Origin: Amoebidium appalachense
Lineage: Eukaryota; Protista; Ichthyosporea
Length of the DNA: 64,000 bases
Direction of reading: 5' to 3'
Assembly: GCA_963693365.1 (NCBI GenBank)
Contig: CAVNZM010000008.1
Span: forward strand, 3,811,572-3,875,571
Shown here: piece after piece, positions 1 through 54,670 of the stretch
Position numbering within the stretch: the stretch's first letter is position 1
Layout: every line of letters begins with the position of its first letter
The notes under the pieces: model-generated
Database searches by the model: none
What the model was told of the DNA's origin: nothing
What the model saw: only the letters and a program-made list of their open reading frames with translations
Position numbers and translations under genes: made by a program

Positions 1-3000
1 TTCCTGAAAAACAGGTGTAGAAAACTGGGAAGGAGAGGTGAACGAATTCGGGGTCCCACCGTGTACCGGGGCCCCTACCTTCACCATACTATCCTTAAGA
101 GAGGAGATGTCTACTTCAGCAGCCCACACATGCTGATTTGACACGTTGATTGAATCTACTTCAACATTTACTCCATCAAAAGGGTGTGTTTGGGTGAATT
201 TATCATACTCGATGTATGCATTTCTACTGAGTGCATCACAATCTTTCATACTTTCACCTTTTGCATAAAAAGCCTTGTAATCAAACGAAGCTAACTCTGC
301 AGCCCACCGTTGCATGCGTTCGTTGGTTAGCTTAGTAAGACCTTTCATGGCTAAAGTAGGTTTGTGATCAGAATACACCTCAAACGTCCTACCTACCAAA
401 ATATGTCTCCACTCTTTGGTAATGAAATGATAGATAGCATGACTTTCCCGTTCTGGATTACTGTAACGTCGTTCCGTGGGGGAAAATACTCGACTGCCAT
501 ATGCAACTACTCTATCTACTTTATCCTGTTCTTGATACAGTATGCCACCCTCACTGACTAAACTGGCATCTACCCGAACTCGGAAAATACCTTGTGTGGG
601 GGAGAAATCGGGGTGAACGAGAACATTATCACTTACCAATACTTCTTTTAACCGTTCAAAAGCTTCTAAAGCTTCAGAGTCCCACAACACGGGGGCTTTT
701 CTGTCACCACCTGTCTGCTTAGTAAGAGGGTGAGCAATTTCGGCATACCTCCGTATAAAACGACGGAGGTAATTGGTTAGTCCTAGAAACTGCCTGAGCT
801 GAGTGACCGTTTTAGGGTGAGGCCATTCTGTAATAGCCTTGATTTTACTAGGATCAGGAATAACACCATCCTTCGTGATCCTATGACCCAGGAATTTAAC
901 ATCTTGCACCCCCACTATGGTCTTTTTACCACTCACTTTCATACCAGCAGCTTCCAACACAGAGAACACTTTTTCACAATTAGAAACTAATTCTTCAAAC
1001 GTTCTCCCTTTGACACATGCGTCATCCATATAACACGCCGTATACGATAAACACGGACGCAAGATATCGCGCATAATACGACACAAATTTGCAGGTGCAT
1101 GCACAAGACCTTGGGGCATCACAGTAAACTGCCACAACTCACCATCGAATGCAAAAGCAGTCTTCTCCTTATCCTCTTCCCTAAGCCGACACTGAAAAAA
1201 TGCATTTTTCAAATCGAGGACACAGAACCACTTATAGCCATGAAAACTATCAAGTAATTCATCAATACGGGGAAGGGGAAAGAGATCCTTTTTAGTGACA
1301 GAGTTAAGGCCGCGTAGGTCTGTGCACATCCTGTAGGACCCGTCTGGTTTTTTAATTAAAAGTACCGGTGACCGCCACTGACTTTTACTAGGCTCTAAAA
1401 TCTGCATTTCTCGAAATTCACTAATCATTTGCCTACCTGACTCTAATTTCGATTGCTCCATTCGATACTGAGGCATCACCACAGGACTGGCATCACCTGT
1501 ATCAATTGCCACTGTATATCCCTTCACAAAACCGTGATCTTTTGGATGCCTAAGAAATACATTTTTGACTCGATTTAACATGGGAAGAATTAAGGCACGT
1601 TGCTGATCCGTCCAACCTGGATCTACCATACCCCAGGGGAGACTCACTTCACCGGAATCACCCTCCTTGTTACAGTTACTACTTGCACCTTCACCTGCAC
1701 ACACTCCGTCTGCTTTACCAATATCATCACTAGAAGGGCCCTTTTCTGTGGATGAGGGATTGACACCTACTGCATCGGACTGATGACCAGACACCGTGGT
1801 AACCGCAGACACTGAAACACCATCAACCGTAGGCGAGCGACTTCCTGTTGGTGTTGATGTCTCGGGCTGGCCACATGCTTCCGGATTACTAAGTTTATCT
1901 GAAGGTAGCTCGGGGGTGGGGATAACTATTTCTGCAACAACTGTATCGAAAGGCAGCTGCCCTTCGATATATCCCAATCGCGTGCCAGCAGGTATTACTA
2001 ATTCTGAATCAAAATTTCGATTTTCTACTTCGATCATGATTGTTTTATCAGCCGCCACTTTACTATATGAAGGACTCACAAATGGAAGTAACCTAGCTGC
2101 CGGAACAAAGACACCTATATCTGCCACGACAGCAAATTTGTCTAAGTTCACCCGGACGAATGCACGACTGTGGGGAGGTACACAAATTTCGCTGACAGTG
2201 TGTGCAGTACTTTGATACCCCTCCGTACCCGTGTGCAAACGTACACTACCACCCTTCTTCAAATGCAACTTATTAGATTCTTCATCTAACAATTTAACAT
2301 GTGCCTTTGAAAATGGACGGCCTAAAATCATACTCTGACCCATGTTTGCACAAACAGCAAACGTGACAAATAATGTGTGGGAACCAATGGTACATGGGAG
2401 AGTGACCCGGCCCACCACATTCAACGATGCATCAGGATTGGCAGTCTTCACACCACTCACTAAGTTATTTGAAAACATTGTAACACGTGCGCCCATCTTC
2501 ATTAAATTACAAATAACTTTTTCATGCACACAATTAATGTTTGCACCACCATCTAAAAGAGCATCATGATTTTGAACATCACCCAATACCACAGGAACAT
2601 ATAACCGTGCTTCTGGCTGAATTAAAGATGCAAACACTTCCTGTAACACAGAAATTTCCACTTCACTACTTTCCACACTAGTCTCTATCACCGACACAGA
2701 AATATTGGAAGGGGGGAGGGGGTGGGGGGGGTGGGAGGGGGTGGGGGAAGGGGAAAAGGGGGGGACGGGAGGAAGGGGGGTGGGGGGTGTGGGGAAAGGG
2801 GGGGGAAAGGGGGGAACGGGGGAAAGACTTAGCTTCATGCTGATTCTCAACGAGAGAGGGGGTAAATTGCACCACAGCAGTTTTAACTGACTGATTTACG
2901 GCACCAGGCCGTGAGTGATTTATTGTCTTATTTACTTCAACAGTATCTGTATAACAAGACACGTTGATTTTAGACATTTCACTATCACTGCACATAGCCT

Positions 3001-3037
3001 CAACTGCAATATACTCTACCCCACTCTCAGCGCCCCG
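1..3037 (-). CDS. pol: Pol (copy 1, partial); apparent net +4 nt frameshift in the G/C-run linker
   Basis: Matches copy-2 pol. The frame breaks only in the homopolymer-rich tract at about 2710-2820, which may be a sequencing error. Confidence 0.75.
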
Positions 3038-4435
3038 TCAACGCCGACGCTCGGCCAAAATTTTAGCCGACGCCTGCTGAGCATGGTCTTTCCACCTAAT
3101 ACCTTCGGGGGCTGAGGGAAAAGTCTTAGGCAATTTTCGGTTGGGACAGTCCCGTTTCTGATGCCCTATCCCCGTACAATGAAAACAAACTCGATCTGAA
3201 ATAGGCACTACTGGTCTCTCACTACCCTGTTGGCTACCGTGCTTGCCGTTTTTCTGATAGGGAGCCGGGCGACGGGGTTGACGGTCATTTTTGGCCTTAC
3301 CACCGACAGCCTGGAAGGCAGCCACCTGAGCCGATAAGCTAGCTATCTGAGCCTGCAGGGCAGCAATCTCCGGAGCACCAATACCACTACCGTTGTTACC
3401 TGGGGTGGAAACACTATTGACCTGCGCTTTCTTGGCCGCCTGCCGACTAGCGAAACGACCCTCGAGCTTGTTAATAATTTTTGACTGAGCCTCATCGAGC
3501 CTGCTATTTGCCTGAGCTATTTCCCACAACTGCGCATCTGCCTCAAACGTATTCCTGTATAAACTACGTTGCATTTGACCGCTGACGTCGGTGTTCAAAC
3601 CAGCTAACTCCAGCAGACGGCGAAACGTGTTGGTATGTGCCGTCACTTGGCCACCAATACTGGCAGCCGTGGCATCCGACGTGGGAGTGAAACGGAGGGC
3701 CCGGATCTGTGTCTCATATGATTCACGCCGAATGTTGGTCAGCCAGTAGTTCTCGATGAAACGCAGCAGCCACTCAGACGCCGTCAGTTCGACTTCGACC
3801 TGCAGAATCTCACCCTTGCCCTTGTGCATAGGGCGAGTCGTCTTCAGTGGTGTCCGAGAAGCCAGGTGAAAGAGAGAGGCCTCCGAACGCTCCTCTCCGT
3901 CAATGCTGAGGGCACGAACCGGCACCGTCTTCTTGTCGTTTTCAGGGTCCATGTAGTCGTCAAGGAGGGTAGCCATCTCCAACACACGAGGATCACCACT
4001 TGCCCGGTTCACACTCTGCAGAATCATGACTTGCCACTGGGCCAGGGAAGTGTCGGGGGACAGCTTGGCGATGCGATCGATGAGACGGTACCATTCAAAC
4101 ACGTTATCAGCCTTGGAGAGTTGAGGAAGCTTGAGCTTCTCCATCATAGCTGCAGCAGCAGCACACACTTCAGGAACCTGAGAAGCCCTGGCCGCAGGAG
4201 CGTCGTAGAACACTTCATCCATCACAATAGGGTCTTGCCACTCCATCACACAGGGGGGCAGAGCGTCGAGAAACTCTGGGTCTATCTCATCCTGCGGATC
4301 CATAACTTGGCCGCGCCACTGGGTGAACTTGCTGACGGTGGCATCCTTGAGCTTGCCGAGGGGGCCAAAAACAAGAGCCTGGGCGAAGGTTGCACTCAGC
4401 CCGGCGACCGGCGAAAAGGGGGGTTCAGGCTCCAT
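3038..4435 (-). CDS. gag: Gag (copy 1), same protein as copy 2
   Basis: The ORF track translation is identical to the copy-2 Gag. Confidence 0.9.
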   Translation of the reverse strand: MEPEPPFSPVAGLSATFAQALVFGPLGKLKDATVSKFTQWRGQVMDPQDEIDPEFLDALPPCVMEWQDPIVMDEVFYDAPAARASQVPEVCAAAAAMMEKLKLPQLSKADNVFEWYRLIDRIAKLSPDTSLAQWQVMILQSVNRASGDPRVLEMATLLDDYMDPENDKKTVPVRALSIDGEERSEASLFHLASRTPLKTTRPMHKGKGEILQVEVELTASEWLLRFIENYWLTNIRRESYETQIRALRFTPTSDATAASIGGQVTAHTNTFRRLLELAGLNTDVSGQMQRSLYRNTFEADAQLWEIAQANSRLDEAQSKIINKLEGRFASRQAAKKAQVNSVSTPGNNGSGIGAPEIAALQAQIASLSAQVAAFQAVGGKAKNDRQPRRPAPYQKNGKHGSQQGSERPVVPISDRVCFHCTGIGHQKRDCPNRKLPKTFPSAPEGIRWKDHAQQASAKILAERRR

Positions 4436-4499
4436 GTTGGGGGCGAAAGCAACAGCCGAGACGGAAGTTTTGCAATATAGCAATTGGATTGGTGTAGCT

Positions 4500-5276
4500 T
4501 GTAAAGTATCCTCACGGACACTTCAGTGTAAAATGTATGTGTATGAGTGTAAACGGGGTTCACTCTGAACTGGATTTCAGAGGATCGATGCGTGCGTTTA
4601 TATACGGATGGTCGACCCGGACAAGATTACTTGACCAATTACACAACTCCCTAGCCGACCAATCATATTACAGATTAGTACAGGGCTAGTAATTACTGTG
4701 TGTGACTACTTGGTCTCTTGCCGGTTCTAACACTCATATATAATCTTTACTGCTGCATGACTTATGACTTACACAGCCCCGAAATATACTCCAAATAAAC
4801 AGGTACCAGTACTTTTCCTGTTTGTGACTTTGGTTACCAGTTACCTTTCGGAGTGCTGTCTCTCTCACATGTGTAACTGCAGGTTTACAACGACCACTCA
4901 TTGCAGCTGGACTTTACCGGGATGCCCTCAACATGACTGGTCGAATATGAGACTCCCCAATCACTCACAACCTGCTTGTTAGTTATTCGTTCTCTATGGC
5001 CGCAGCATTTACGTGTTCCAATCAACACAGAAGAGGCCATAAGTGTCCACTCACGCGAGTCTCACTGTAGTTCGTTTCCAAGTAACCGAACATATGTAAT
5101 TGTATTTGATCATCCGATTGGAAAAGCAGATATAACATTTATGATTGGCTCATTCATCAGCAAACGCCGACATCTGACTGGATGAGCCGGCACCGACGAA
5201 TTGTAAATAAAGCAAATAGATCTGAATAGATCTGAATCGATCGATTGACACGAATGCTCGCCGCGGAGACATAACA
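4500..5276 (-). repeat. Shared internal LTR (3' LTR of copy 2 and 5' LTR of copy 1)
   Basis: A single LTR copy lies between the pol stop/PPT of copy 2 and the gag of copy 1. Confidence 0.8.
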
Positions 5277-5287
5277 ATCCCCCCCTC
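5277..5287 (-). other. Polypurine tract (plus-strand primer)
   Basis: Minus strand reads GAGGGGGGG-AT immediately before the LTR TGTTA, about 40 nt after the pol stop codon. Confidence 0.85.
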
Positions 5288-5325
5288 AGCAGGAAATCTG
5301 AGCTCCGACGAAGAAGAGACAAAGT

Positions 5326-8300
5326 TTAACACATCGATTCAAGTTTCTTTTCCCGCCGTGGGAACAGAACATCGCGCAACTGCCGTCGTCGTAAAAGACG
5401 AGCCGTGCGTGCATCTGTAGCATTTGGTGTCGAGTTAACACTCACCGACTGAGTGACGTCGACCTGTTTGTCTACCCGTGGTGTTTTTGGATTTCTAGGA
5501 ACAACAACCTTAGGATGAGAAGGTTGTCTAACTACCCGACGTTCGTATGCTTGGATTAACTCTGGGCACCATAATAAAGACTCTGGACGCCACTGATTGA
5601 AAGCCGTGTCGTAGCCTGCAAATTTGACTCGATAATAAGTGGTTGCATGGCCGTTGACTGTAACTACTTTCTTATCCAAAATTTTCTCTACCGTGGTGTC
5701 CATGCCACCTAACTCTGGAATACCGTTATGCTGGGTGTTAGGACACTGAGAAAACGTCGAAAGAGCACGGAAGGCAAATTCGTGGTAAGCCTTAATGTCG
5801 TCGACGTTATACTGGCGAATATCGTGCTCATTCACCGTATGCCGGAGTTTGTATTCAGTACTACCTATCCGGGCTAACACTATATATGGACCCAAGAACC
5901 GTGGTCTCCATTTCTTCACGGGGCCACCCTTAGCACGGGTGAAATTCCTAACCAACACCTTACTGCCCACTTTAAAAGTACGGAGAGGAATGTTAGTGTT
6001 AGTGCTGTTAGTAAGAGATTCATGTGCTTGCTCTGTACGTTGCCGTGCCACTTCACGGGCATGCAAAACTCGAGCCAACACCTCCTCCCTATACTTAGTC
6101 CACTCTTCCATACGGAGAGGACCAGAGAAGGCAGGAAGCATACTCACATCTAAGAACTCGGTACACTCCTGACCATGCACAAGAAAATACGGAGAAAAAC
6201 CAGTGATAGCATTAGGTGTGGTACGATAAGCATGCACCACAAAAGGAAGTACACTATCCCAGTCAGCGTGCTCCATATCCACATATTTTGCTAAACACGA
6301 TTGAAACACTGCATGTGCACGTTCAGCAACGCCATTTGCTTGAGGGTGGTAAGCAGACGTATGCAACAATGACACACCCAACAGTTTACACACCTCACTC
6401 ATTATTTCAGACAAAAATGAGCTACCCCTATCACTTAACACAGAACGGGGGGGGCCAAAACGAAGACAAACATGATGCAAAAACACACGTGCCAACGTCA
6501 CTGCATCACTTGAACGAATAGGGACAGTTTCAGTCCAACGTGTAGCTAAATCAGTGAGAGTAACAATATAATGATTACCCTGCACTGTTTCGGGGAAAGG
6601 CCCCATCACATCCATAGCTACCCGTTCAAAAGCCTTAATAAAAGTACCATGATACTGGGGGACCCGACTTCGCATGTGTGTGGATTGATTGTGAAATGCA
6701 CATGCATGACATCCCAACACCTTTCTCTCCACATCCTTACTCATGCCAGGCCAATAATAATTCACTTGCACACGTTGATATGTACGGGACACACCTAAAT
6801 GACCCGCCCACGGAGCATCATGCATGTGTTCAAGCACCATATCAACCAAACGAGGGGGAACCCACAAACGTTGACCTTGTGGCCCACTTAAATGATAAAG
6901 AACACCATCTTGCAACACACATTGGAGAGCACACCTTTTTGTACGATTTTCCCATGTCCGACGTTGGCCTTTGGTGGGTTTATCCACCGAAAAAACCATA
7001 TCCCCTGGACGTTGCTCCACTTGACATATCACGTCGTGCAAAAACCTGTCACTGCGTTGTGACGACACCACCTGTTCCTGAAAAACAGGTGTAGAAAACT
7101 GGGAAGGAGAGGTGAACGAATTCGGGGTCCCACCGTGTACCGGGGCCCCTACCTTCACCATACTATCCTTAAGAGAGGAGATGTCTACTTCAGCAGCCCA
7201 CACATGCTGATTTGACACGTTGATTGAATCTACTTCAACATTTACTCCATCAAAAGGGTGTGTTTGGGTGAATTTATCATACTCGATGTATGCATTTCTA
7301 CTGAGTGCATCACAATCTTTCATACTTTCACCTTTTGCATAAAAAGCCTTGTAATCAAACGAAGCTAACTCTGCAGCCCACCGTTGCATGCGTTCGTTGG
7401 TTAGCTTAGTAAGACCTTTCATGGCTAAAGTAGGTTTGTGATCAGAATACACCTCAAACGTCCTACCTACCAAAATATGTCTCCACTCTTTGGTAATGAA
7501 ATGATAGATAGCATGACTTTCCCGTTCTGGATTACTGTAACGTCGTTCCGTGGGGGAAAATACTCGACTGCCATATGCAACTACTCTATCTACTTTATCC
7601 TGTTCTTGATACAGTATGCCACCCTCACTGACTAAACTGGCATCTACCCGAACTCGGAAAATACCTTGTGTGGGGGAGAAATCGGGGTGAACGAGAACAT
7701 TATCACTTACCAATACTTCTTTTAACCGTTCAAAAGCTTCTAAAGCTTCAGAGTCCCACAACACGGGGGCTTTTCTGTCACCACCTGTCTGCTTAGTAAG
7801 AGGGTGAGCAATTTCGGCATACCTCCGTATAAAACGACGGAGGTAATTGGTTAGTCCTAGAAACTGCCTGAGCTGAGTGACCGTTTTAGGGTGAGGCCAT
7901 TCTGTAATAGCCTTGATTTTACTAGGATCAGGAATAACACCATCCTTCGTGATCCTATGACCCAGGAATTTAACATCTTGCACCCCCACTATGGTCTTTT
8001 TACCACTCACTTTCATACCAGCAGCTTCCAACACAGAGAACACTTTTTCACAATTAGAAACTAATTCTTCAAACGTTCTCCCTTTGACACATGCGTCATC
8101 CATATAACACGCCGTATACGATAAACACGGACGCAAGATATCGCGCATAATACGACACAAATTTGCAGGTGCATGCACAAGACCTTGGGGCATCACAGTA
8201 AACTGCCACAACTCACCATCGAATGCAAAAGCAGTCTTCTCCTTATCCTCTTCCCTAAGCCGACACTGAAAAAATGCATTTTTCAAATCGAGGACACAGA

Positions 8301-10107
8301 ACCACTTATAGCCATGAAAACTATCAAGTAATTCATCAATACGGGGAAGGGGAAAGAGATCCTTTTTAGTGACAGAGTTAAGGCCGCGTAGGTCTGTGCA
8401 CATCCTGTAGGACCCGTCTGGTTTTTTAATTAAAAGTACCGGTGACCGCCACTGACTTTTACTAGGCTCTAAAATCTGCATTTCTCGAAATTCACTAATC
8501 ATTTGCCTACCTGACTCTAATTTCGATTGCTCCATTCGATACTGAGGCATCACCACAGGACTGGCATCACCTGTATCAATTGCCACTGTATATCCCTTCA
8601 CAAAACCGTGATCTTTTGGATGCCTAAGAAATACATTTTTGACTCGATTTAACATGGGAAGAATTAAGGCACGTTGCTGATCCGTCCAACCTGGATCTAC
8701 CATACCCCAGGGGAGACTCACTTCACCGGAATCACCCTCCTTGTTACAGTTACTACTTGCACCTTCACCTGCACACACTCCGTCTGCTTTACCAATATCA
8801 TCACTAGAAGGGCCCTTTTCTGTGGATGAGGGATTGACACCTACTGCATCGGACTGATGACCAGACACCGTGGTAACCGCAGACACTGAAACACCATCAA
8901 CCGTAGGCGAGCGACTTCCTGTTGGTGTTGATGTCTCGGGCTGGCCACATGCTTCCGGATTACTAAGTTTATCTGAAGGTAGCTCGGGGGTGGGGATAAC
9001 TATTTCTGCAACAACTGTATCGAAAGGCAGCTGCCCTTCGATATATCCCAATCGCGTGCCAGCAGGTATTACTAATTCTGAATCAAAATTTCGATTTTCT
9101 ACTTCGATCATGATTGTTTTATCAGCCGCCACTTTACTATATGAAGGACTCACAAATGGAAGTAACCTAGCTGCCGGAACAAAGACACCTATATCTGCCA
9201 CGACAGCAAATTTGTCTAAGTTCACCCGGACGAATGCACGACTGTGGGGAGGTACACAAATTTCGCTGACAGTGTGTGCAGTACTTTGATACCCCTCCGT
9301 ACCCGTGTGCAAACGTACACTACCACCCTTCTTCAAATGCAACTTATTAGATTCTTCATCTAACAATTTAACATGTGCCTTTGAAAATGGACGGCCTAAA
9401 ATCATACTCTGACCCATGTTTGCACAAACAGCAAACGTGACAAATAATGTGTGGGAACCAATGGTACATGGGAGAGTGACCCGGCCCACCACATTCAACG
9501 ATGCATCAGGATTGGCAGTCTTCACACCACTCACTAAGTTATTTGAAAACATTGTAACACGTGCGCCCATCTTCATTAAATTACAAATAACTTTTTCATG
9601 CACACAATTAATGTTTGCACCACCATCTAAAAGAGCATCATGAATTTGAACATCACCCAATACCACAGGAACATATAACCGTGCTTCTGGCTGAATTAAA
9701 GATGCAAACACTTCCTGTAACACAGAAATTTCCACTTCACTACTTTCCACACTAGTCTCTATCACCGACACAGAAATATTGGAAGGGGGGAGGGGGTGGG
9801 GGGTGGGAGGGGGTGGGGGAAGGGGAAAAGGGGGGGGACGGGAGGAAGGGGGGTGGGGGTGTGGGGAAAGGGGGGAAAGGGGGGAACGGGGGAAAGACTT
9901 AGCTTCATGCTGATTCTCAACGAGAGAGGGGGTAAATTGCACCACAGCAGTTTTAACTGACTGATTTACGGCACCAGGCCGTGAGTGATTTATTGTCTTA
10001 TTTACTTCAACAGTATCTGTATAACAAGACACGTTGATTTTAGACATTTCACTATCACTGCACATAGCCTCAACTGCAATATACTCTACCCCACTCTCAG
10101 CGCCCCG
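5326..10107 (-). CDS. pol: Pol polyprotein (aspartic protease, RT, RNase H, integrase, GPY/F, chromodomain), in frame with gag
   Basis: ALLDGGAN (protease), WRSPVLLIKKPDGSYRMCTDLR and YMDD (RT), VDAS...SDHKP...DALSR (RNase H), HMHDAPWAGH...CHAC, AMD, SDRG and NGVAER (integrase), FLGPY, and VEKILDKK...YYRVKFAGY...QWRPE (chromodomain). The frame is open from the gag stop. Confidence 0.95.
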   Translation of the reverse strand, partial: RGAESGVEYIAVEAMCSDSEMSKINVSCYTDTVEVNKTINHSRPGAVNQSVKTAVVQFTPSLVENQHEAKSFPRSPLSPLSPHPHPPSSRPPPFPLPPPPPTPHPLPPSNISVSVIETSVESSEVEISVLQEVFASLIQPEARLYVPVVLGDVQIHDALLDGGANINCVHEKVICNLMKMGARVTMFSNNLVSGVKTANPDASLNVVGRVTLPCTIGSHTLFVTFAVCANMGQSMILGRPFSKAHVKLLDEESNKLHLKKGGSVRLHTGTEGYQSTAHTVSEICVPPHSRAFVRVNLDKFAVVADIGVFVPAARLLPFVSPSYSKVAADKTIMIEVENRNFDSELVIPAGTRLGYIEGQLPFDTVVAEIVIPTPELPSDKLSNPEACGQPETSTPTGSRSPTVDGVSVSAVTTVSGHQSDAVGVNPSSTEKGPSSDDIGKADGVCAGEGASSNCNKEGDSGEVSLPWGMVDPGWTDQQRALILPMLNRVKNVFLRHPKDHGFVKGYTVAIDTGDASPVVMPQYRMEQSKLESGRQMISEFREMQILEPSKSQWRSPVLLIKKPDGSYRMCTDLRGLNSVTKKDLFPLPRIDELLDSFHGYKWFCVLDLKNAFFQCRLREEDKEKTAFAFDGELWQFTVMPQGLVHAPANLCRIMRDILRPCLSYTACYMDDACVKGRTFEELVSNCEKVFSVLEAAGMKVSGKKTIVGVQDVKFLGHRITKDGVIPDPSKIKAITEWPHPKTVTQLRQFLGLTNYLRRFIRRYAEIAHPLTKQTGGDRKAPVLWDSEALEAFERLKEVLVSDNVLVHPDFSPTQGIFRVRVDASLVSEGGILYQEQDKVDRVVAYGSRVFSPTERRYSNPERESHAIYHFITKEWRHILVGRTFEVYSDHKPTLAMKGLTKLTNERMQRWAAELASFDYKAFYAKGESMKDCDALSRNAYIEYDKFTQTHPFDGVNVEVDSINVSNQHVWAAEVDISSLKDSMVKVGAPVHGGTPNSFTSPSQFSTPVFQEQVVSSQRSDRFLHDVICQVEQRPGDMVFSVDKPTKGQRRTWENRTKRCALQCVLQDGVLYHLSGPQGQRLWVPPRLVDMVLEHMHDAPWAGHLGVSRTYQRVQVNYYWPGMSKDVERKVLGCHACAFHNQSTHMRSRVPQYHGTFIKAFERVAMDVMGPFPETVQGNHYIVTLTDLATRWTETVPIRSSDAVTLARVFLHHVCLRFGPPRSVLSDRGSSFLSEIMSEVCKLLGVSLLHTSAYHPQANGVAERAHAVFQSCLAKYVDMEHADWDSVLPFVVHAYRTTPNAITGFSPYFLVHGQECTEFLDVSMLPAFSGPLRMEEWTKYREEVLARVLHAREVARQRTEQAHESLTNSTNTNIPLRTFKVGSKVLVRNFTRAKGGPVKKWRPRFLGPYIVLARIGSTEYKLRHTVNEHDIRQYNVDDIKAYHEFAFRALSTFSQCPNTQHNGIPELGGMDTTVEKILDKKVVTVNGHATTYYRVKFAGYDTAFNQWRPESLLWCPELIQAYERRVVRQPSHPKVVVPRNPKTPRVDKQVDVTQSVSVNSTPNATDARTARLLRRRQLRDVLFPRREKKLESMC

Positions 10108-11505
10108 TCAACGCCGACGCTCGGCCAAAATTTTAGCCGACGCCTGCTGAGCATGGTCTTTCCACCTAATACCTTCGGGGGCTGAGGGAAAAGTCTTAGG
10201 CAATTTTCGGTTGGGACAGTCCCGTTTCTGATGCCCTATCCCCGTACAATGAAAACAAACTCGATCTGAAATAGGCACTACTGGTCTCTCACTACCCTGT
10301 TGGCTACCGTGCTTGCCGTTTTTCTGATAGGGAGCCGGGCGACGGGGTTGACGGTCATTTTTGGCCTTACCACCGACAGCCTGGAAGGCAGCCACCTGAG
10401 CCGATAAGCTAGCTATCTGAGCCTGCAGGGCAGCAATCTCCGGAGCACCAATACCACTACCGTTGTTACCTGGGGTGGAAACACTATTGACCTGCGCTTT
10501 CTTGGCCGCCTGCCGACTAGCGAAACGACCCTCGAGCTTGTTAATAATTTTTGACTGAGCCTCATCGAGCCTGCTATTTGCCTGAGCTATTTCCCACAAC
10601 TGCGCATCTGCCTCAAACGTATTCCTGTATAAACTACGTTGCATTTGACCGCTGACGTCGGTGTTCAAACCAGCTAACTCCAGCAGACGGCGAAACGTGT
10701 TGGTATGTGCCGTCACTTGGCCACCAATACTGGCAGCCGTGGCATCCGACGTGGGAGTGAAACGGAGGGCCCGGATCTGTGTCTCATATGATTCACGCCG
10801 AATGTTGGTCAGCCAGTAGTTCTCGATGAAACGCAGCAGCCACTCAGACGCCGTCAGTTCGACTTCGACCTGCAGAATCTCACCCTTGCCCTTGTGCATA
10901 GGGCGAGTCGTCTTCAGTGGTGTCCGAGAAGCCAGGTGAAAGAGAGAGGCCTCCGAACGCTCCTCTCCGTCAATGCTGAGGGCACGAACCGGCACCGTCT
11001 TCTTGTCGTTTTCAGGGTCCATGTAGTCGTCAAGGAGGGTAGCCATCTCCAACACACGAGGATCACCACTTGCCCGGTTCACACTCTGCAGAATCATGAC
11101 TTGCCACTGGGCCAGGGAAGTGTCGGGGGACAGCTTGGCGATGCGATCGATGAGACGGTACCATTCAAACACGTTATCAGCCTTGGAGAGTTGAGGAAGC
11201 TTGAGCTTCTCCATCATAGCTGCAGCAGCAGCACACACTTCAGGAACCTGAGAAGCCCTGGCCGCAGGAGCGTCGTAGAACACTTCATCCATCACAATAG
11301 GGTCTTGCCACTCCATCACACAGGGGGGCAGAGCGTCGAGAAACTCTGGGTCTATCTCATCCTGCGGATCCATAACTTGGCCGCGCCACTGGGTGAACTT
11401 GCTGACGGTGGCATCCTTGAGCTTGCCGAGGGGGCCAAAAACAAGAGCCTGGGCGAAGGTTGCACTCAGCCCGGCGACCGGCGAAAAGGGGGGTTCAGGC
11501 TCCAT
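10108..11505 (-). CDS. gag: Gag (copy 2) with CCHC zinc knuckle
   Basis: First ATG (MEPEPP) at 11505; C-terminal CFHCTGIGHQKRDC fits CX2CX4HX4C; ends in TGA at 10108-10110. Confidence 0.9.
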   Translation of the reverse strand: MEPEPPFSPVAGLSATFAQALVFGPLGKLKDATVSKFTQWRGQVMDPQDEIDPEFLDALPPCVMEWQDPIVMDEVFYDAPAARASQVPEVCAAAAAMMEKLKLPQLSKADNVFEWYRLIDRIAKLSPDTSLAQWQVMILQSVNRASGDPRVLEMATLLDDYMDPENDKKTVPVRALSIDGEERSEASLFHLASRTPLKTTRPMHKGKGEILQVEVELTASEWLLRFIENYWLTNIRRESYETQIRALRFTPTSDATAASIGGQVTAHTNTFRRLLELAGLNTDVSGQMQRSLYRNTFEADAQLWEIAQANSRLDEAQSKIINKLEGRFASRQAAKKAQVNSVSTPGNNGSGIGAPEIAALQAQIASLSAQVAAFQAVGGKAKNDRQPRRPAPYQKNGKHGSQQGSERPVVPISDRVCFHCTGIGHQKRDCPNRKLPKTFPSAPEGIRWKDHAQQASAKILAERRR

Positions 11506-11569
11506 GTTGGGGGCGAAAGCAACAGCCGAGACGGAAGTTTTGCAATATAGCAATTGGATTGGTGTAGCT

Positions 11570-12346
11570 TGTAAAGTATCCTCACGGACACTTCAGTGTA
11601 AAATGTATGTGTATGAGTGTAAACGGGGTTCACTCTGAACTGGATTTCAGAGGATCGATGCGTGCGTTTATATACGGATGGTCGACCCGGACAAGATTAC
11701 TTGACCAATTACACAACTCCCTAGCCGACCAATCATATTACAGATTAGTACAGGGCTAGTAATTACTGTGTGTGACTACTTGGTCTCTTGCCGGTTCTAA
11801 CACTCATATATAATCTTTACTGCTGCATGACTTATGACTTACACAGCCCCGAAATATACTCCAAATAAACAGGTACCAGTACTTTTCCTGTTTGTGACTT
11901 TGGTTACCAGTTACCTTTCGGAGTGCTGTCTCTCTCACATGTGTAACTGCAGGTTTACAACGACCACTCATTGCAGCTGGACTTTACCGGGATGCCCTCA
12001 ACATGACTGGTCGAATATGAGACTCCCCAATCACTCACAACCTGCTTGTTAGTTATTCGTTCTCTATGGCCGCAGCATTTACGTGTTCCAATCAACACAG
12101 AAGAGGCCATAAGTGTCCACTCACGCGAGTCTCACTGTAGTTCGTTTCCAAGTAACCGAACATATGTAATTGTATTTGATCATCCGATTGGAAAAGCAGA
12201 TATAACATTTATGATTGGCTCATTCATCAGCAAACGCCGACATCTGACTGGATGAGCCGGCACCGACGAATTGTAAATAAAGCAAATAGATCTGAATAGA
12301 TCTGAATCGATCGATTGACACGAATGCTCGCCGCGGAGACATAACA
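11570..12346 (-). repeat. 5' LTR of copy 2 (about 750-780 bp; 3' boundary uncertain)
   Basis: Starts TG and is identical to 4500-5276. Contains TATATAAA near 11667-11674 and ATTGG (CCAAT-type) boxes upstream. Candidate TTTACA ends at 11570, 11597 and 11618. Confidence 0.75.
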
Positions 12347-12496
12347 GAGACCGCCTTAACACAAGCAACCTGCAGGCCAAGAACCATCGACAGGCCTACC
12401 CACCCTTTCAGGAACGACATATCGGGGGTGTGTGTGTGACATATACTAATCCGTCTCAGCAGATCATCCTACAATAAGTCTACGATCAAGATCGGG

Positions 12497-14244: not shown

Positions 14245-28699
<14,455 letters not shown>

Positions 28700-30478: not shown

Positions 30479-44109
<13,631 letters not shown>

Positions 44110-53609: not shown

Positions 53610-54257
53610 CTACACAACAGCAGTCCCCGACTTCCTTACACCAAGCAAATAATCACAATCGGGGCAGCGATGCTCTGTGTCCATCAGGTCGGGGTGGAAA
53701 CAGGGAATGCAGCAGCAACAGCAGATCCAGCAGCCATAAACGCAACAGGCCAAAGCAGAAACATACGAGACCATCCCATGAACACGCTTGGTCTTGGACA
53801 TAACGTCTTTCTTGCATCGACGGCAGTGGCACAACTGTGGCTTAGTTCCGAGTCTCACTTCAAATTTCGGCTGGTCATACATAAATGTCGTGGTCGTGGG
53901 CTGGGCATCCTCAGGTGTGGCTGTCGGCGGCGGGTTAGGCTCTTCGTTGAAAGAAGGAGGGGAGCTAAGTGGCTGTGGTTCGGCTGCAGTTATGTTTTCT
54001 GTTAGATGGGCTGTTTCATCAGGAATCACATGGGTGTTCTGAGCCAAAGTGGGAGCTGGTTCAGCGGAAGGATCAGATTCTGGGTAAATAGCTGCAGATG
54101 CCTCAGGGAATGGATAATTCTGAACAGGTATTAAATCTGGATAGAGGTTGCTCTGAACTGTGGCTTGAGTGATGGTTTCTGGTTCTGGTTGGTGGTATTG
54201 GTAGGTGGGAGGTTGCTCGAGATCCAGATCCGGATCAGGGGGATTCTGTGTCTCCAT
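53610..54257 (-). CDS. LITAF/SIMPLE-domain protein (single coding exon)
   Basis: Pro-rich N-terminus with PPTY (PPxY), CRRC knuckle, hydrophobic Cys-rich stretch CCVYGCWICCCCCIPCF, and DTEHRCPDCDYLLG (HxCxxC). Confidence 0.92.
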   Translation of the reverse strand: METQNPPDPDLDLEQPPTYQYHQPEPETITQATVQSNLYPDLIPVQNYPFPEASAAIYPESDPSAEPAPTLAQNTHVIPDETAHLTENITAAEPQPLSSPPSFNEEPNPPPTATPEDAQPTTTTFMYDQPKFEVRLGTKPQLCHCRRCKKDVMSKTKRVHGMVSYVSALACCVYGCWICCCCCIPCFHPDLMDTEHRCPDCDYLLGVRKSGTAVV

Positions 54258-54670
54258 GTTTGTCGGGAATCGAAGCTGTAAATAGAAGATGCAGATAGGG
54301 CTAGATGAGTGGGTGCAAAAATGACAAGTCTTAACAAAATCGAACGTAGGTAGCAAGAAGGAATGCTCCGTGCCTGTTTTTGGTGTTTGGGTTCGCTTGT
54401 GAAGATAGTGTGTGTGCGAGTGTGTTGTGTGTGCTCAAAAGGACGAATTTATAGTGCCGGAGGAGGGTAAAATGCTTGGGGTTTACGCTGTTTACTCGAG
54501 GCAAAGAGAACCAGTCTCAGGTATGGGGGGGGGTTTTGCTCGGAATATCCCCTCAGCGGTATATCATGATCACGTACATAGATGTCGGGTGGTGACTATA
54601 TATCAGGGTTTACTTTCTCTACGAGACACCATAAAGACTACAAGGAGAAATCAATTAGTTGGGGTTCCCC

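Follow-up and report, generated by a model that had tools for sequence, protein, structure and literature searches.

A predicted alphavirus-like readthrough signal at the gag-pol junction of a chromodomain-bearing Ty3/Gypsy retrotransposon from Amoebidium appalachense

Stop codons that separate gag and pol in the same reading frame have been described for several retroelements, and here we analyze such a junction, UGA-CGG, in a chromodomain-bearing long terminal repeat (LTR) retrotransposon of the Ty3/Gypsy type from the ichthyosporean Amoebidium appalachense, found in a stretch of 64,000 nt (assembly GCA_963693365.1, contig CAVNZM010000008.1, positions 3,811,572 to 3,875,571 of the forward strand), referred to below as the window. 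Skipper of Dictyostelium discoideum has a stop-separated gag-pol layout and is named in a list of stop codon elements that cites Leng et al. 1998. Skipper is a chromodomain-bearing Ty3/Gypsy element (PMC5911963). The fission yeast elements Tj1, Tosmo1-3, and Tcry1, of the Tf1/sushi group of Ty3/Gypsy, have GAA-TGA-CT(A/G) junctions (bioRxiv 2022.12.06.519325, PMC10085805), and the gag stop is required for the transposition of Tj1 (PMC4600332). In the available passages of the respective papers, no stop-separated gag-pol is described for choanoflagellate and Capsaspora elements (PMC6875170, PMC4007536). Among RNA viruses, the signal of Venezuelan equine encephalitis virus (VEEV) consists of UGA-CGG, a spacer of 8 to 9 nt, and a stem of 11 to 12 bp whose 5' side has a 1-nt bulge and which closes a loop of 101 nt (Firth et al. 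2011, PMC3159437); the spacer is 9 nt in eastern and western equine encephalitis viruses (EEEV and WEEV), and the loop is 154 nt in Sindbis virus (PMC3159437). The VEEV stem boosts readthrough 10- to 14-fold, and compensatory changes restore its effect (PMC3159437). Type II signals also occur in tobra-, furo-, and pecluviruses and in a coltivirus (PMC3159437, PMC13517186), and a 2026 review gives spans of 126 and 177 nt for such signals and readthrough below 1% for UGACGG cases without the stem (PMC13517186).

The element lies on the minus strand of the window, to which all its coordinates refer. Its gag frame (10108-11505) starts at the ATG at 11505, encodes 465 amino acids with a CCHC knuckle from residue 417, could be aligned with 16 relatives, and ends in TGA. 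As originally predicted from the sequence, this in-frame TGA (10110-10108) is followed by CGG GGC GCT GAG, and the same frame remains open for the 1,593 codons of pol (5326-10107) up to a TAA at 5328-5326. The UGA-CGG at 10105-10110 is our candidate readthrough site, and it agrees with type II, or alphavirus-like, signals in that CGG follows UGA. We consider that Gag-Pol is probably made by readthrough of this UGA, and we lean, with less confidence, toward the more specific proposal that a predicted downstream stem stimulates readthrough at UGA-CGG and would so set Gag-Pol production. In the proposed mechanism, most ribosomes would stop at the UGA and release Gag, whereas some, a few percent if alphaviruses are a guide, would decode the UGA as an amino acid and continue into pol. 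A predicted stem of 13 bp, which starts 9 nt downstream, probably boosts this step, and the protease of the element would then cut Pol free, perhaps at a V-E-A-M motif that lies a short way beyond the UGA.

The stop is a constant feature of the element. Copy 1, the second copy present in the window, has the same junction, as the original prediction had stated: its UGA-CGG is at 3035-3040 (TGA at 3040-3038), the stem arms recur unchanged at 3028-3015 and 2866-2854, and 2816-3040 is identical to 9886-10110 over 225 nt. We also inspected contigs from 7 of 24 listed sequencing runs (X1, X5, X6, X9, X11, X18, and X20), which represent five samples with three organism labels; X1 may share its source with the window, and rare variants and forms are dropped from contigs of this kind. 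UGA-CGG was unchanged in all seven runs: among the variants listed, no sense codon at the stop, no other letter within UGA-CGG, and no joint across the stop was found in these contigs. In X9, X18, and X20, the listed contigs span the stop without unexplained differences. The X5 contig over the stop has further differences, which probably lie in a C-rich tract (9778-9885), since X6, from the same sample, has a single difference over 9888-10191. Both stem arms are unchanged on a single contig in X1, X6, and X11. In X20, which we guess to be RNA, one contig runs from 11599 through the stop to 10063, and pol 9000-10062 is uncovered save for short pieces on the C-rich tract; a gap of this kind in one contig study is no evidence. 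Several runs contain two gag haplotypes in patches at comparable depth (10162-11356). Of the 37 variant sites listed in gag and pol (9000-11505), 23 are synonymous, which suggests that selection acts on the two frames. Neither a chance mutation nor a slip of the assembly accounts for the stop.

The reading frames around the junction leave few other routes into pol. The two remaining frames stop by 10099 and 10088, that is, within 22 nt, and since both are closed, a single frameshift, either -1 or +1, cannot reach pol. Gag-pol frameshifting was rejected also because pol is in the frame of gag and does not overlap it in another frame, and a slippery-looking AAATTTT at 10133 was discarded, being out of register and leading to the closed frames. 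UGA is not a sense codon here, since TGG serves for all 28 tryptophans and the 2,058 codons contain no further in-frame TGA. A reassigned or selenocysteine UGA was judged unlikely from this codon usage and from the search of Rfam, in which 5200-12400 gave no match at E values up to 1.

The predicted stem has a 5' arm at 10085-10098, which begins after the 9-nt spacer and comprises 5 bp, a bulged U at 10093, and 8 bp, and a 3' arm at 9924-9936. In this 13-bp core, 10098-10094 pair with 9924-9928 and 10092-10085 with 9929-9936, for a total span of 175 nt; the interior (9937-10084; 148 nt) is predicted to form a long inner hairpin and contains AUG codons at 10065 and 10047. The original prediction had proposed a stem of about 18 bp that closes a loop of about 130 nt. 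Its spacer and basal core hold, and its size needs revision to 13 bp, plus an alternative upper extension of 4 bp preferred with a probability of about 0.4 to 0.55, around a folded interior; the upper 6-bp AUUGCA/UGCAAU helix that it included was rejected at probabilities of 0.05 to 0.10. Core pair probabilities amount to 0.74 to 0.98 in four larger contexts of 300 to 2,000 nt and to 0.61 to 0.93 with the 8 nt next to the stop blocked, as they would be under a ribosome; in the longest contexts, the stop itself falls within a small local hairpin that would be melted by a ribosome. Type II signals have a basal stem of 10 to 12 bp or more, located 8 to 12 nt after the stop and spanning 100 to 200 nt, and the predicted structure lies within these values.

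The fold downstream of the stop is also statistically unusual. As the original prediction had suggested checking, we folded the 200 nt from the stop and obtained -60.7 kcal/mol with a z score of -3.45, and none of 200 shuffled sequences was as stable. Along the element, the 190-nt window right after the stop has the lowest z score (-4.43) of 65 windows (24 shuffles each), and the windows with the second and third lowest scores overlap it. Of 6,032 arbitrary positions, 1.3% are followed 7 to 12 nt later by a duplex as strong as this one, with none at 4,552 positions in pol and 5.0% at 1,444 positions in the GC-richer gag. Shuffling yields P values of 0.0015 to 0.0095 for the duplex, the latter when the C-rich tract is included in the target.

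Past the stop, pol encodes in order a linker, a protease motif (LLDGG at residue 159), reverse transcriptase (YMDD at residue 668), RNase H, integrase, an SH3 domain, and a chromodomain, as judged from Pfam. The C-rich tract codes for the proline-rich linker between stem and protease, and it has an in-frame 3-nt insertion in one run. The order protease-reverse transcriptase-RNase H-integrase, the best match in PDB (Ty3-G Gag-Pol; E value, 1e-86), LTRs with TG...CA ends, and a polypurine tract place the element in Ty3/Gypsy, and the chromodomain at the integrase's C terminus (PF00385; E value, 3e-8), which is present in seven of eight Pol relatives too, agrees with the chromovirus clade. V-E-A-M (10063-10074) forms pol codons 12 to 15. 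The corresponding pattern V-[END]-[AS]-[IVML] occurs 16 times in 17 family Gags against 2.7 expected, and this polyprotein has it at just three places, Gag 339, Pol 959, and Pol 12-15. The motif at Pol 12-15 lies mostly upstream of the first AUG, and the relative P0001 has it at residue 2. From this placement, V-E-A-M is a possible protease cleavage site.

The comparison with relatives suggests that a separate Gag is a family-wide trait. A HMMER profile search of 1.84 billion representative sequences returned 34 Gag matches, none of which is longer than 548 amino acids or fused to Pol; a 608-amino-acid cluster mate, found later, ends at the same motif. C termini were measured for 19 of the 34 matches and for three cluster mates, with 15 matches excluded that aligned just around the knuckle or lacked a knuckle. 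Among the knuckle-bearing relatives, 17 of 21 (14 of 18 clusters) end 30 to 39 amino acids past the knuckle, versus 35 here, and the remaining four end at 12, 20, 22, and 48; the Gag P0121, with 74% identity, terminates at the same residue as the Gag in the window. The eight Pol relatives (P0001 to P0008) are 45 to 52% identical, and none carries a Gag in the lengths of 876 to 2,788 amino acids searched; a search for shorter N-terminal relatives of Pol returned none. Gag P0127 and Pol P0001 are from contigs of equal length (7,572), as are P0158 and P0122 (6,743), and the members of each pair are probably separate open reading frames of one element. In a quick tree of reverse transcriptase-RNase H (57 of 121 rows, without reference chromoviruses, midpoint rooted), which serves to show a distinct clade and not its placement, the element and P0001 to P0008 form one clade on a long branch (1.44) with a Shimodaira-Hasegawa-like approximate likelihood ratio test support of 100. 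The element appears to be part of a deep Ty3/Gypsy clade for which the protein searches made gave no named members. The sole named Gag relative is a hypothetical protein of Daphnia pulex (EFX62684.1; 29% identity), whose DNA could be Daphnia's own or foreign, and the ESM Atlas yielded generic Gag/CCHC clusters only. The Gag alignment is too diverged to provide search patterns, and diverged DNA of the family was not found in viral, metagenome, or genome contigs. Outside the family, a 708-bp contig of a Candidatus Burkholderia crenata assembly (L001), which is probably eukaryotic DNA, carries at 9-650 a piece of Gypsy-like reverse transcriptase/RNase H with 38% identity.

The original prediction had this element setting its Gag:Pol ratio by structure-stimulated readthrough. 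Readthrough stands as the best explanation of the fixed stop, the closed frames, the Gag ends of the family, and the geometry of the site, because it accounts for CGG, spacing, and stem together; from these features we infer both readthrough and the contribution of the stem. A number of observations weigh against this interpretation. (i) Gag contains the 5' arms of eight 16-nt duplexes that are stronger, so that the strength of the stem alone is unexceptional, whereas its position and the local z score are exceptional, and chance pairing is favored because the 5' arm is G rich and a C-rich tract is nearby. (ii) No contig over the stem arms shows variation in them, and such near-identical copies provide no evidence from covariation; the invariance is itself uninformative, because most of pol 9000-9777 is equally invariant. 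(iii) The relatives are known as proteins only and show neither stop codon, frame, nor stem, and a frameshifting relative would likewise show a separate Gag. (iv) The V-[END]-[AS]-[IVML] pattern was defined post hoc from alignments, its last residue here is the AUG codon, and it is absent from five of nine family Pol sequences checked. (v) Gag-pol readthrough in retrotransposons has mostly been inferred from layout, and the junction of Tca2 on its own, with a similar UGA and structure, failed to give readthrough when tested in a Saccharomyces cerevisiae reporter (PMC2194720), which is a warning against inferring function from layout.

Some of these points would also fit readthrough that is determined by the local UGA-C context or by factors of the element or host, with the stem being incidental or serving packaging, dimerization, or RNA stability. 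The fission yeast gypsy elements conserve only 8 nt around TGA-CT, with no downstream structure described in the available passages (PMC10085805), about 1% readthrough persists without the stem in VEEV reporters (PMC3159437), and comparable duplexes are found at 5% of gag positions; we nevertheless regard this alternative as unlikely, since no local fold along the element is stronger than this one, which starts exactly at the spacing set by the edge of the ribosome, and UGACGG cases are reported to require a stem (PMC13517186). A minor spliced RNA that skips the stop would deliver Pol by another route, in a host whose genes are intron rich, as seen in the GT-AG exons of a Na+/H+ exchanger. There are 10 donor-like sites in gag and 14 YAG acceptors after the stop, and 16 of 32 pairs (four donors and eight acceptors) would be in frame, including the acceptor at 10074 just before V-E-A-M, yet with each of the four donors the zinc knuckle would be lost entirely or for the most part, the seven runs (contigs, from which rare forms are dropped, with one guessed RNA) contained no joint across the stop, and the presence of CGG and of a stem at the correct spacing is left unexplained by splicing. 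We assign splicing a low probability.

Pol might also be made separately from the AUG at 10065 or 10047, either by ribosomes that reinitiate past the gag stop or by way of an internal promoter. The in-frame AUG 14 codons past the stop is upstream of every Pol domain, and the start assigned to P0001 lies shortly ahead of its VEAV motif. The context of the AUG is modest (GCT AUG U), however, and it lies inside the predicted structure; moreover, Pol made in this way would lack the portion of Gag by which it is normally carried into particles. A minor promoter exists at the Tca2 junction, but Tca2 Pol still came from gag-pol RNA (PMC2194720), and pol of Tj1 has no AUG at all (PMC4600332). We consider separate initiation improbable. 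The notion that the stop is a sequencing or assembly error or a nonsense change in a nonautonomous lineage, and that a master copy with a single open reading frame supplies pol, draws on the fact that all DNA examined is from near-identical copies. It is contradicted by the absence of any sense codon variant in the seven runs, by the 74% identical Gag P0121 that ends at the same residue, by the lack of a fused relative among the 34 Gag matches and eight Pol relatives, and by a pol frame that is fully open and has its catalytic motifs; this explanation is largely refuted, and we consider it highly improbable.

The first 12.3 kb of the window (1-12346) is a head-to-tail pair of this one element in the order LTR-internal-LTR-internal. 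The 5' LTR of copy 2, which is the copy discussed above, is at 11570-12346 (777 bp, TG...CA) and is identical to the LTR common to both tandem copies (4500-5276; 777 bp, TG...CA); the element, with both 777-bp LTRs identical, is young. The LTR 3' end at 11570 is marked by loose contig ends in four sequencing runs, and the polypurine tract is at 5277-5287. The internal part of copy 1 (1-4499) runs off the start of the window. It differs from copy 2 by one substitution and four small indels, all of the latter in the C-rich tract (copy 1, 2723-2800), where they break the pol frame downstream of the junction; these indels may be homopolymer assembly errors. In the 64-nt leader (11506-11569), neither a primer site of the TGG type for a tRNA, an exact 8-nt complement in the LTR, nor a self-priming complement was found. 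The sole AATAAA of the 7-kb element is at 9989-9994, which is 114 nt beyond the gag stop in the interior of the stem; a short gag-only transcript that uses it is conceivable, and one such hexamer is about what chance would give.

In the rest of the window, the host DNA is rich in introns and microsatellites. A scan for host genes, which covered 103 of 421 candidate or added frames, placed genes at 20800-25300 (minus strand), 34798-35184 (plus strand), 38133-41031 (plus strand), and 53610-54434 (minus strand), and the matches comprise Na+/H+ exchanger exons, a cyclic nucleotide-binding domain, an F-box and leucine-rich repeats (both weak), and a LITAF-like zinc ribbon. A 138-bp direct duplication with 98% identity is present at 14731-14867 and 17642-17779.

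It is a tentative and rather doubtful proposition that a deep chromodomain Ty3/Gypsy lineage has independently reached the full alphavirus device, composed of UGA-CGG, a 9-nt spacer, a bulged basal stem closed about 150 nt downstream, and a protease site after the stop, and uses it family-wide for its Gag:Pol ratio. If true, this lineage-wide device would give retrotransposons their first case of readthrough stimulated by a long-range stem. The signal itself, if real, would extend from RNA viruses to nuclear mobile elements, which would point to convergence on a geometry defined by the ribosome, and the junction would be a compact, noninfectious cassette for studying the way in which termination at UGA is weakened by a distant stem in a nonmodel eukaryote. 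Given the youth of the element and its near lack of variation between samples, detection of its RNA and protein should be feasible.

Comparison with the known systems shows which parts of this junction are familiar. The original prediction had named Skipper as a stop-separated precedent in Ty3/Gypsy; such a precedent exists, and it is broader than Skipper alone, since it includes Tj1, Tosmo1-3, and Tcry1. Skipper resembles the present element as a chromodomain-bearing Ty3/Gypsy element, a likeness drawn from its description rather than from a comparison of sequences. Tj1, Tosmo1-3, and Tcry1 share with it the in-frame gag-TGA-pol arrangement and a C after the stop, but their junction is GAA-TGA-CT(A/G) instead of CGT-TGA-CGG, and no downstream stem is described for them in the available parts of the sources; they are self-priming, and Tj1 pol is without AUG, whereas no self-priming complement was found here. 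The copia-type gag-UGA-pol element Tca2 of Candida albicans likewise has an in-frame UGA with a predicted downstream structure, after a spacer of 8 nt, and differs in having the integrase before the reverse transcriptase and a local pseudoknot instead of a long-range stem. In Moloney murine leukemia virus, structure-stimulated readthrough of gag-UAG-pol sets Gag:Pol, and the structure is about 8 nt behind the stop, but this retrovirus uses UAG-G and a compact pseudoknot (type III). Stop-separated gag-pol is thus already known, and the new part, to judge from our literature searches, would be a long-range alphavirus-type stimulator in a retrotransposon: no report of such a stem was found in the literature covered, mostly main texts available without subscription, and the word "retrotransposon" is absent from PMC3159437 and PMC13517186. 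The closest likeness in form is the alphavirus nsP3-nsP4 signal (VEEV, EEEV, WEEV, and Sindbis virus), which is of Beier-Grimm type II, with UGA-CGG/CUA and an extended 3' stem-loop. In contrast to the alphaviruses, the signal is located at the gag/pol junction of an LTR retrotransposon, its stem is a prediction of 13 bp instead of 10 to 12, and there is no sequence kinship. Shared with them are UGA-CGG, the 9-nt spacer, a basal stem with a 1-nt bulge in the 5' arm, a long folded interior, and a polymerase encoded behind the stop, and the span of 175 nt falls within the 126 to 177 nt of the alphaviruses, next to the 177 nt of Sindbis virus.

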